From Escherichia coli (GTDB lineage: Bacteria; Pseudomonadota; Gammaproteobacteria; Enterobacterales; Enterobacteriaceae): 1,948 bases of DNA. Numbering within the stretch: position 1 is the stretch's first letter; every line of letters starts with the position of its first letter. Below the pieces are notes generated by a model. It had not been told where the DNA came from, made no database searches, and saw only the letters and a program-made list of their open reading frames with translations. Both the position numbers and the translations under genes were made by a program. The DNA is taken from assembly GCF_003334335.1 (NCBI RefSeq), contig NZ_QOWQ01000096.1. One strand, 5' to 3'. This document shows, one piece after another, positions 1 to 1,948 of the stretch.

Positions 1-764
1 GTGCGTTTTTCCGGGTCATAGTTTGACGGCACCTGGATGATGCGACCGCGGATATGGTAGTTCACCGTCATCTGCTGACCACCAAACTGCTCCGCATCCA
101 CCTGCATCCCCACAATGGCCGTGTTCGGGTAGCACTGTTTCACATCGATGATTTCGGTGTATGACGACCACAGCGTTCTGTTCTGCAGCTGGTCCGTGGT
201 GCTGTCCGCCGTCTCCCTGACCATCCGGATGTTAAAGGGGCGGGGAGGCAGATTATCCAGAATCACCGACGCAAGGAACTGTGAGGTGGTCTTGCCGTTA
301 ATGGTGACATCCTTTTCCGTCACCCAGTTACCGTTACGCTGTAACTGAATCAGCAGACGGACAGAGGACGGATTACGGTCACCCTTTGACGTGGTCTCCA
401 CCAGTGACTGCACCCCGAAGGTCACCCGCAGGCGGTCAATGTTCGCTGACGTAATGGTGCGTGTTACCGGTTTTGCCCTGGTCACTTCGACACCCAGTAC
501 AGTTTCAGAGCCGGAGGACTCAAAGCCTTCCGGTGGTGTCTGCTCCTGCTCCCCGGCACGCCAGACCGCGGTCACACCGTGTATCACGGGATTACCGTCC
601 GTGTCCGTCAGCGGGGTTTTGTTCACCAGAATACTCTGCAGGCCTTTCACCGGGCCTTCTATCGGTCCCTCACCAATCGCATCAATCACGCTCATCATCT
701 GCGTGGATTTGAGATTATCCTTCACCTCACGAGGCGTGTGTGCCTTACCGCCACCTTTACCCAC
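1..764 (-). CDS. J: Host-specificity / tail-tip protein J (central tail fibre), N-terminal ~254 codons; gene continues past the window start
   Basis: Reverse-complement translation from GTG at 764..762 gives MGKGGGKAHTPREVKDNLKSTQMMSVIDAIGEGPIEGPVKGLQSILVNKTPLTDTDGNPV...NIRMVRETADSTTDQLQNRTLWSSYTEIIDVKQCYPNTAIVGMQVDAEQFGGQQMTVNYHIRGRIIQVPSNYDPEKRT, open to position 1. This closely matches the lambda gpJ N-terminus as I recall it (MGKGSSKGHTPREAKDNLKST...). There is no in-frame ATG upstream before a stop, and an AGGAGAGGGG Shine-Dalgarno lies 6 nt upstream. It is not in the ORF track only because it is truncated by the window edge. Confidence 0.9.
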   Translation of the reverse strand, partial: MGKGGGKAHTPREVKDNLKSTQMMSVIDAIGEGPIEGPVKGLQSILVNKTPLTDTDGNPVIHGVTAVWRAGEQEQTPPEGFESSGSETVLGVEVTRAKPVTRTITSANIDRLRVTFGVQSLVETTSKGDRNPSSVRLLIQLQRNGNWVTEKDVTINGKTTSQFLASVILDNLPPRPFNIRMVRETADSTTDQLQNRTLWSSYTEIIDVKQCYPNTAIVGMQVDAEQFGGQQMTVNYHIRGRIIQVPSNYDPEKR

Positions 765-770
765 TCGATC

Positions 771-780
771 CCCCTCTCCT
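771..780 (-). promoter_or_regulatory. Shine-Dalgarno sequence for J (AGGAGAGGGG on the minus strand)
   Basis: Minus-strand sequence reads AGGAGAGGGG-GATCGA-GTG; the purine-rich block sits 6 nt upstream of the GTG start at 764..762. Confidence 0.6.
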
Positions 781-805
781 GTCTGATGTCTGAATTTGTT
801 TATGC

Positions 806-838
806 CCAAAAAACAACAGGCACCCCGGAGGGTGCCTG
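806..838 (-). terminator. Rho-independent terminator on the minus strand, about 42 nt upstream of the J start
   Basis: Perfect 9-bp GC-rich inverted repeat CAGGCACCC (817..825) / GGGTGCCTG (830..838) with a 4-nt loop (826..829). On the minus strand the hairpin is followed immediately by UUGUUUUUUGGGC (plus 816..806). On the plus strand it is followed by CAUCAUGACGG with no U-tract, so it is unidirectional. Confidence 0.7.
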
Positions 839-876
839 CATCATGACGGAATAAAAATTCTGAATATCTTCACATT

Positions 877-904
877 TTCACAAACTGACTGTGGCGCGTA
901 TAAT
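877..904 (+). promoter_or_regulatory. Sigma70-type promoter on the plus strand: -35 TTCACA (877..882), 16-bp spacer, -10 TATAAT (899..904), with an A/T-rich UP-like tract upstream (~848..872)
   Basis: The -10 hexamer is a perfect TATAAT and the -35 matches TTGACA at 5 of 6 positions with 16-bp spacing. The upstream tract AATAAAAATTCTGAATATCTT is AT-rich. Predicted transcription start is about 911..913. Confidence 0.6.
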
Positions 905-910
905 TTCGCT

Positions 911-1008
911 GCGTTAGTGTTTTTTCTGCCCGAGTAACAAAAACAACTCCTTAACATTAATCTTCATTTGTCTGTCCCGCAGCTCCGCGATCACTGCGGG
1001 ATTTTTTT
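911..1008 (+). ncRNA. Candidate small RNA (~98 nt) in the I-J spacer, transcribed antisense to the tail operon
   Basis: Predicted start 7 to 9 nt after the TATAAT and 3' end at the U-tract of the plus-strand terminator. No ATG occurs anywhere in the transcript and the only GTG-initiated frame is 6 codons. An A/U-rich single-stranded stretch (CUUCAUUUGUCUG, 961..973) lies directly 5' of the terminator hairpin. Both ends are predicted, not mapped. Confidence 0.45.
975..1008 (+). terminator. Rho-independent terminator on the plus strand
   Basis: 8-bp stem TCCCGCAG (975..982) / CTGCGGGA (994..1001) with 6 G-C pairs and an 11-nt loop, followed by TTTTTTT (1002..1008) and then ATGTTTTAT. On the minus strand the same hairpin is preceded, not followed, by the run, so it is oriented to stop plus-strand transcription. 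It abuts the I stop codon (1014..1016). Confidence 0.75.
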
Positions 1009-1013
1009 ATGTT

Positions 1014-1694
1014 TTATCCCTGTCGACCAATAACCACGACCTTTCCGCCCCCGCCTTCATCACGGGTACTGATGTCCTGGGATATACGGCGGGAGCCAAC
1101 CAGCATTTCCCCGTAAGGCACCGGCATCGGGTTACCCTGGGCAATCATGTTGTCCAGTGAGGAAAAGTACGTGTTCTGTTTACCGTTATCCGTTGCCCGG
1201 TAATCCGGTGTTTTTGCCTTCGGGGCCAGCATCTGGGCCACACCGCCCAGAATCATGCTGGCTCCAAGTGAAAACAGCATCGTGGTGGCAGAAAAACCAC
1301 CGGCTGCCAGGGCTGAACCCCATAACGCCATCGTGGCTCCGGCAGTGAAGAAAGAGCCCACGATGGCCGCCGCCCCCAGCACAATCTGCAGTCCGCCCTT
1401 TCCGGCACCGGCCAGTCGCGGCACAATATGGATGACCGTTCCCTCACCCAGTGGTTCGTGAAGGCGGGCATACACCGCCTCCGGTGCCGTGTCATCACCG
1501 GCAATACGTATCTGGTACCAGCCTTCGTTCATCTGACGGCGAAAGCCCGGCACCTGCAGCGACAGGGCACGGATGGCTTCCGCTGCCGTGTTCACATACA
1601 GGCTGATGCGGCGACCAAATCGTTGTAAATCCCCGTGAAGGCAGATGCGGACCAGTGGCGGTGACGCCAGACAGAATGCGTTCGTCGTTGCCAT
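1014..1694 (-). CDS. I: Tail assembly protein I (lambda gpI family): N-terminal ubiquitin-like domain plus Gly/Ala-rich hydrophobic C-terminal region
   Basis: Complete 226-aa ORF from ATG at 1694..1692 to TAA at 1016..1014. The translation MATTNAFCLASPPLVRICLHGDLQRFGRRISLYVNTAAEAIRALSLQVPGFRRQ...GKQNTYFSSLDNMIAQGN...GEMLVGSRRISQDISTRDEGGGGKVVVIGRQG closely resembles lambda gpI as I recall it. A GAGAGAGG purine run (1706..1713) lies 11 nt upstream of the start. Position immediately downstream of K and upstream of J matches the conserved K-I-J order. Confidence 0.92.
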   Translation of the reverse strand: MATTNAFCLASPPLVRICLHGDLQRFGRRISLYVNTAAEAIRALSLQVPGFRRQMNEGWYQIRIAGDDTAPEAVYARLHEPLGEGTVIHIVPRLAGAGKGGLQIVLGAAAIVGSFFTAGATMALWGSALAAGGFSATTMLFSLGASMILGGVAQMLAPKAKTPDYRATDNGKQNTYFSSLDNMIAQGNPMPVPYGEMLVGSRRISQDISTRDEGGGGKVVVIGRQG

Positions 1695-1948
1695 TTTTCG
1701 GAATACCTCTCTCGTTTGCTCAGTTGTTCAGGAATATGGTGCAGCAGCTCGCCATCACCACAGTAAATGGCGGCATGATTCGGCACCGATGAACCAAAAC
1801 AGCACAGCAGCACATCGCCCGGTTGTGCTGATGACAACGGCACCTGATACAGCCCTGTGGCCTCCAGATTATCCAGGTACAGGTTCTGGCCGTTGCGCCA
1901 CCAGTCATCCTCGCGATGAAAATCCGGCATATCAATTCCCGCCAGATG
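1592..1948 (-). CDS. K: Tail assembly protein K (lambda gpK family), C-terminal NlpC/P60 (C40 peptidase-like) region; N-terminus lies beyond the window end
   Basis: The frame is open from the window edge (...HLAGID-MPDFHREDDWWRNGQNLYLDNLEATGLYQVPLSSAQPGDVLLCCFGSSVPNHAAIYCGDGELLHHIPEQLSKRERY...) to TGA at 1594..1592. The Met at 1930 given in the ORF track is internal, not the true start. The LLCCFG Cys and downstream His residues are typical of NlpC/P60 tail-assembly proteins. The ORF overlaps the I start by 103 nt in a different frame. Confidence 0.9.
   Translation of the reverse strand, partial: HLAGIDMPDFHREDDWWRNGQNLYLDNLEATGLYQVPLSSAQPGDVLLCCFGSSVPNHAAIYCGDGELLHHIPEQLSKRERYSEKWQRRTHSVWRHRHWSASAFTGIYNDLVAASACM

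Follow-up and report, generated by a model that had tools for sequence, protein, structure and literature searches.

Lambda OOP/cII and P22 Sar/ant are the classic phage cis-antisense RNAs. OOP overlaps the 3′ end of the cII coding sequence, Sar overlaps the ribosome-binding site of ant, and both RNAs are co-expressed with their targets; cleavage of the duplex by RNase III has been proposed for OOP.

The nearest described RNA to the one considered here is PasB (E2348CN_0006) of EPEC E2348/69, an 83-nt species encoded on the minus strand at NC_011601.1 1466343–1466261, in prophage PP6 between E2348C_1436 and E2348C_1437 (Pearl Mizrahi et al. 2021, PMC8550237, Table S6). It was validated by Northern blot on the E2348/69 copy with the probe AATCCCGCAGTGATCGCGGAGCT (PMC8550237). 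Its level falls in an hfq deletion of E2348/69, with a log2 fold change of −6.8 in the activating and −2.4 in the non-activating condition, and RIL-seq assigns it 37 partners, PasB being the second RNA in 99–100% of its chimeras (PMC8550237). A preprint describes a variant, PasB-2, with a polymorphism at position 27, reports PasB to be essentially single-copy and gives its seed only as a prediction (Zhu, Shabalina and Storz 2026, 10.64898/2026.05.13.724894). The promoter of PasB, CRP, an antisense relation and a lytic-cycle role are mentioned neither in PMC8550237 nor in 10.64898/2026.05.13.724894.

Three further RNAs, EcOnc22, EcOnc23 and EcOnc24, are encoded on the plus strand of prophages Sp15, Sp14 and Sp11, respectively, of E. 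coli O157:H7 Sakai (Tree et al. 2014, PMC4104026, Table S2). Each gives a Northern band of approximately 85 nt and is destabilised without Hfq (PMC4104026). Their targets are given as unknown in a 2021 review.

The window analysed here is a stretch of 1,948 nt with an sRNA gene at 911–1008 on the plus strand. Judged by its sequence, this sRNA is PasB, an already published prophage small RNA and not a new one. It is probably an Hfq-dependent sRNA of approximately 83–98 nt, carried as an independent ‘moron’ insert in the lambdoid I–J spacer and acting in trans.

Genomic context of the element

The I–J spacer and the genes around it are composed of the following features.

1–764, minus strand: 5′ part of tail-tip gene J, with a GTG start at 764–762, running off the window; annotated as gpJ in RefSeq at a 100% identical locus (L001); translation VGKGGGKAHTPRE...
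770–779, minus strand: Shine–Dalgarno region of J, GGAGAGGGGG, read from the sequence
841–957, minus strand: ORF of 38 codons, annotated as a hypothetical protein in some phage records
1014–1694, minus strand: tail assembly gene I, stop codon at 1014–1016; RefSeq uses an internal start at 1595
1592–1948, minus strand: 3′ part of tail gene K (C40 peptidase), running off the window

The long ORFs with a known function are all encoded by the minus strand, and together they constitute a lambdoid prophage's distal tail module. RefSeq confirms K, I and J through its annotation of an E. coli prophage segment that is 100% identical, and, as in lambda, the long form of I shares 103 nt with K. The I–J spacer measures 249 nt in the window (765–1013). 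The corresponding gap in lambda is 60 nt and is devoid of the PasB element, which indicates that the element is dispensable for the expression of I and J.

The minus-strand ORF at 841–957 was rejected as a real gene, its start codon being lost or its frame shifted, through changes in the length of the U-run, in most variants. The I–J spacer is non-coding, and the ORF is best regarded as spurious.

In one related locus (L002, Stx2a_WGPS6), an Ant/Arc-like module of the P22 immI type is located at 4603–6198, between tail genes L and K. The module lies on the strand of the tail operon and could drive transcription not modified by Q towards I and the sense-strand terminator described below.

The sRNA gene and its identity

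Opposite the tail operon, the spacer carries the sRNA with its promoter and terminator.

877–904, plus strand: PasB promoter, sigma-70 type, with −35 TTCACA (877–882), a 16-nt spacer and −10 TATAAT (899–904); promoter scan, 11 of 12 matches
911–1008, plus strand: PasB sRNA, promoter-predicted primary transcript of 98 nt; the published 83-nt E2348/69 form corresponds to 927–1008
976–1008, plus strand: Rho-independent terminator of PasB, with a GC-rich stem of 7–9 bp (976–982/994–1000, CCCGCAG/CUGCGGG) and U7 at 1002–1008

The promoter scan predicts a transcription start at G911, and the terminator ends 5 nt from the stop codon of I. The coverage-based ends published for the E2348/69 copy map to positions 927 (5′) and 1008 (3′) of the window. 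The 3′ end at 1008 is firm. For the 5′ end there are two candidates, namely 911 as predicted from the promoter and, 16 nt downstream, about 927 as given by coverage.

Promoter-like and terminator-like sites are no more numerous in the window than in shuffled controls. Site counts alone therefore prove nothing, and the case for the sRNA rests on conservation and experiment. The same counts would suit a reading in which there is no real transcript, and a promoter-like and a terminator-like site have come to flank part of an intergenic spacer by chance. This reading retains next to no probability: the reverse complement of the PasB Northern probe matches the window exactly at 981–1003, which ties the window to an sRNA that Northern blot and RIL-seq have validated, the EHEC homologues have CRAC and Northern evidence, and thousands of prophages carry the element in conserved form. 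It is already refuted by the published Northern blot, RNA-seq and RIL-seq results on the near-identical copy. The candidate sRNA that the first-pass annotation had placed at 911–1008 is thus a real gene, with a promoter and terminator of its own, a conserved position and a near-identical copy that has been detected experimentally.

Alignment of the window with the E2348/69 copy reveals four differences over approximately 98 nt, comprising two substitutions and two single-nucleotide indels. Relative to E2348/69 PasB, the window copy has an additional C following the U-run, lacks one C ahead of the terminator and shows a G to A change in AUUGAUC. At the published variable position 27 it carries A, as does PasB-2. 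The two loci share the K–I–spacer–J layout and its orientation, and the two RNAs have the same terminator, with an end 5–6 nt from the stop codon of I.

No Rfam family matches the plus strand of the window at E ≤ 1, and four related loci gave nothing at the gathering score. AgvB, AsxR and Esr41 were rejected as identities in the absence of an Rfam match, the same search recovering AgvB itself at 96.5 bits in Sakai Sp10. The prophage sRNA svsR, which limits phage infection and whose gene lies at the 3′ end of cI, was set aside as unrelated. In Sakai Sp10 (L007, 328–582), STnc100 (146 bits) and AgvB1 (96.5 bits) converge directly with abutting 3′ ends and exemplify the convergent pairs of sRNAs that have been described at moron sites.

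Relation to EcOnc22–24 of O157 Sakai

At their 2014 coordinates, the peaks of EcOnc22–24 fall inside I–J spacers of the current Sakai record, 22–24 nt from J. Locating AgvB1 with Rfam indicates that the 2014 coordinates are shifted by 137–146 nt relative to the current record, a shift that was measured on AgvB1 at 1.94 Mb and inferred at 2.2–2.9 Mb. With this shift, each peak lies inside one of three identical 91-nt PasB-type copies. These copies are located in Sp15 (L004), Sp14 (L005) and Sp11 (L006). Calibrated in this manner, EcOnc22, EcOnc23 and EcOnc24 would be homologues of PasB. The equivalence is unstated in the PasB papers, and PMC8550237 lists no EHEC homologue for PasB.

The Sakai copies occupy the same I–J spacer on the same strand as PasB of the window, and their Northern band of about 85 nt compares with a predicted length of 91 nt. 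The promoter dyad, the AAUAACUCC seed region, UUAAUCUUC and the terminator are shared between them. The Sakai copies are approximately 82% identical to the window over the spacer, with a 6–7-nt deletion in the 5′ region, a weaker −35 hexamer (TTCCGG) and AATAAT as the −10 hexamer.

Conserved architecture

Three features within and upstream of the RNA stand out in the comparison of spacers.

856–877 (core 859–874), plus strand: dyad TCTGA-N6-TCACA with A/T flanks, centred at about −44.5 from the start at 911
936–955, plus strand: single-stranded functional core, comprising the (AAN)4 tract AACAAAAACAAC at 936–947 followed by the anti-Shine–Dalgarno seed CUCCUU at 947–952
945–955, plus strand: AACUCCUUAAC, containing the seed CUCCUU; the core at 936–955 is the most conserved internal segment

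Of 5426 complete E. coli genomes, 1766 have a match to the spacer, as do 102 phage records, most of them Stx-converting. A plaque-forming phage that grows on K-12, PhiR12_2 (PV340550), has a spacer of 97% identity. The 3′ end of PasB lies 9–13 nt from the last aligned codon of I in about 115 of the 126 loci fetched, and the antisense orientation is invariant. In these 126 loci J starts 200–210 nt upstream of the terminator, or 300–390 nt where extra inserts occur.

A terminator-pattern scan yielded 120 viral stretches which, with the annotated loci, gave 55 distinct spacers. Across these 55 spacers, whose apparent conservation is inflated by the choice of loci through an exact terminator pattern, the conserved blocks are AATAAAAWTTCTGA-N6-TCACATT upstream, the −10 hexamer, GCGTTA at the RNA start, the U-run, an (AAN)3–4 tract leading into AACUCC, UUAAUCUUC and the terminator.

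The seed region AAYAACUCC is conserved across the spacers, and CUCCUU is complementary to a Shine–Dalgarno sequence. AACUCCUUA is the sole segment of the RNA body common to PasB and a divergent tandem paralogue, which has kept the seed. The consensus fold contains only the terminator helix and leaves the 5′ 68 nt unpaired. PasB accordingly displays a conserved, unstructured seed region and a Rho-independent terminator with a long U tail, both of them traits of Hfq-dependent trans-acting sRNAs. An ARN tract has been implicated in the binding of AgvB to Hfq's distal face, and the (AAN)n tract may by analogy be the distal-face site of PasB.

The upstream dyad matches the CRP consensus TGTGA-N6-TCACA at nine of ten core positions. 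Its half-sites are invariant in all 26 of 26 promoter variants, in which the N6 spacer and the −35 hexamer vary and the −10 hexamer is TATAAT, AATAAT or GATAAT. The dyad is also retained in divergent tandem paralogues. Because its centre lies about 3 bp further upstream than is canonical for a class II activator, control by CRP or FNR, with CRP or a relative as the putative regulator at the dyad, is a lead and no more. The input of host state into the sRNA that the first-pass annotation had suggested is plausible, given this conserved regulator-type site upstream of the promoter.

Spot 42 is repressed by CRP. PasB is more abundant in an overnight static LB culture than in an exponential DMEM culture, and in the same study the condition dependence of Spot 42 is opposite to that of PasB (PMC8550237). 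A CRP/FNR-type activator that tunes PasB transcription from the upstream dyad would fit the higher level in static LB.

Tandem arrays

Five loci contain two PasB-family units per spacer, one locus contains three, and six loci contain four units in a spacer of approximately 920 nt. All tandem units are located in the same I–J spacer, run antisense to the tail operon and have a promoter element and a terminator of their own. Among the 5426 complete E. coli genomes, 67, including those of O91:H21 and O104:H21 STEC, carry the four-unit array, and the deposited phage collection has none. The array loci are L080 (native coordinates 10106–11031, minus strand), L073, L079, L089, L116 and L122; further tandem loci are L008 (about 8170–8880) and L041 (1677–2017).

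The promoter element is common to all tandem units, and a CUCC[UA]U-type seed is common to most of them. The rest of the body differs, as does the terminator in some units. Duplication with diversification of the seed is expected of trans-acting regulators, and is unneeded for an RNA that pairs with its own complement. The promoter, seed and terminator are the parts that selection keeps, in the diversified tandem copies as well.

Proposed action in trans

The dependence of PasB on Hfq, together with its 37 partners in trans, is typical of trans-acting sRNAs. In the explanation we favour, PasB would be transcribed in the prophage from its own, probably regulated promoter and would bind Hfq through its U-tail and the (AAN)n tract, and the CUCCUU seed would pair in trans with the ribosome-binding regions of host and prophage mRNAs. 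The antisense orientation would insulate PasB from late-operon transcription, and the PasB terminator would prevent read-through into gene I. Complementarity to the late mRNA would then be a consequence of the arrangement, with at most a secondary function.

Several points weigh against this explanation. No validated PasB target and no reported target motif were found in the literature consulted, where the preprint seed is only predicted; and the strict placement of the element, 5–6 nt from I, with its invariant antisense orientation, could signify a function in cis rather than a history of insertion. The two candidate 5′ ends, the position of the dyad and the terminator-based choice of loci count against it as well.

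Relation to the late tail mRNA

The transcript of 911–1008 is fully complementary to the spacer of the minus-strand late mRNA immediately past the stop codon of I. The first-pass annotation had described the sRNA as antisense to the I–J spacer of the late tail operon, and this relation is borne out. The overlap extends from 5 nt past the stop codon of I to 131 nt from the Shine–Dalgarno sequence of J, and contains no coding sequence, ribosome-binding site or conserved ORF. A further element lies on the late-mRNA strand between the segment complementary to PasB and J.

806–839, minus strand: strong intrinsic terminator on the late-mRNA strand, with a 10-bp hairpin at 816–839 and a U-run at 806–815; terminator scan and fold

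Variants of this sense-strand terminator keep their pairing, one through a compensatory change of C–G to U–A and another with a G·U pair that forms only on the minus-strand RNA. A different, bidirectional terminator replaces it in about 33 loci. From lambda biology, Q-modified polymerase should read through the sense-strand terminator, and I transcripts that lack Q antitermination would end at it, with a 3′ UTR fully complementary to PasB.

The minus-strand segment 888–807 was considered as a divergent sRNA and rejected: neither a promoter scan nor inspection by eye found a minus-strand promoter for it, and the hairpin is treated as the late-operon terminator. STnc100 (RF02076) was likewise rejected for minus-strand 807–888, where the match reaches 25 bits against a gathering score of 47 and the central 127 model positions are missing, whereas genuine STnc100 scores 146 bits in Sakai Sp10. 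The partial match is most likely driven by the terminator hairpin.

The conservation of the structure of the sense-strand terminator, or its replacement by another terminator, would be expected if the spacer served as an insulator. The sense terminator and the opposing promoter or promoters would then form a module that keeps J and the genes downstream of it silent in the lysogen, the RNA being largely a by-product. In some relatives, non-Q-modified transcription towards J could come from an Ant/Arc module that lies upstream on the same strand. The terminator alone would suffice for insulation, however, and the RNA body has a conserved, diversifying seed and Hfq motifs and is bound by Hfq with many partners; we therefore regard this explanation as highly improbable.

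PasB may also combine its role in trans with an action in cis on the I–J spacer during prophage induction, by which the supply of tail tips would be tuned to the state of the host. In one version, the duplex of PasB and the spacer would be cut by RNase III, and J, with lom and stf downstream, would be uncoupled from the upstream tail genes; in the other, the head-on PasB promoter would interfere with late transcription. The perfect complementarity and invariant position of the element are in keeping with such an action, as are a near-consensus promoter that faces the late operon, the conserved regulator-type dyad upstream of it, the complementary 3′ UTR that the sense terminator gives to non-antiterminated I transcripts, and the precedent of lambda OOP/cII. 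However, the overlap avoids coding sequence and ribosome-binding sites, and in silico folding of the sense RNA gives the J initiation region an unpaired probability of 0.39 when the complementary segment is free and 0.41 when it is blocked. Structural coupling of this segment to the J initiation region was rejected, since folding predicts no effect.

The published expression data also bear on an action in cis. In EPEC lysogens, the baseMean values are 482 and 1082 for PasB, 4.8 for the I mRNA and 15 for the J mRNA (PMC8550237 data), so that an abundance of PasB goes with hardly any I or J mRNA. No chimeras of PasB with I or J occur among the RIL-seq interaction-table entries listed (PMC8550237). 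Strong Hfq dependence and many partners in trans are atypical of pure cis-antisense RNAs, 67 complete genomes tolerate head-on arrays with as many as four units, and lambda expresses I and J without the element. Heavy Q-modified late transcription would moreover be expected to occlude the PasB promoter. Taken together, these observations make a dual function rather unlikely.

The antisense relation to the I–J spacer is thus real, and an effect on the late mRNA is speculative and unlikely to be the main function. Action in trans is favoured because the seed and Hfq motifs are conserved and tandem copies have diversified, neither of which would be selected by a purely cis-antisense function. The routes in cis that would remain are RNase III cleavage of the 98-bp duplex and promoter collision in lytic growth, and both are conjectural. 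A broader proposal would make PasB and the two- to four-unit arrays of some STEC prophages bifunctional, acting in trans through Hfq in lysogens and, after induction, setting the level of J mRNA relative to the upstream tail genes through RNase III or promoter collision, with the participation of the sense terminator and with the CRP/FNR-type dyad as a link to host metabolism. We consider this proposal quite improbable. Were the antisense idea true, PasB would be a rare example of a moron sRNA that exerts feedback on the assembly of virions. The idea is more probably false, in which case the conserved anti-Shine–Dalgarno seed and the CRP/FNR-like promoter site are the leads of use. The antisense hypothesis merits less attention than do the EcOnc22–24 equivalence, the dyad, the terminator on the sense strand and the tandem arrays.

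Comparison with known systems

PasB, whose spacer is matched in 1766 of the 5426 complete genomes, ranks with the most widespread sRNAs that E. coli prophages encode, and naming the element of the window PasB avoids reporting a known RNA as new. One element would join three separately named data sets: PasB in EPEC, EcOnc22–24 in EHEC and the diversifying tandem family. The leads offered by the seed and the promoter site make the function in trans and the regulation of PasB directly testable.

The ‘anti-sRNAs’ AgvB and AsxR (RF02702 and RF02703) resemble PasB in being short, Hfq-bound and prophage-encoded, and in occupying moron sites of the late region. The design is also shared, with a conserved 3′ terminator and a variable 5′ region. 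Unlike PasB, AgvB and AsxR are located downstream of pR′/stx and not between I and J. PasB, in turn, is without the CACAACA mimic of a GcvB target, and has no covariance-model match.

OOP and Sar are like PasB in that a short, terminator-ended RNA lies opposite a phage mRNA to which it is fully complementary. The resemblance ends at the position of the overlap, which in PasB comprises spacer only, and at the timing of expression: unlike OOP and Sar, PasB is abundant in lysogens, where its ‘target’ is silent.
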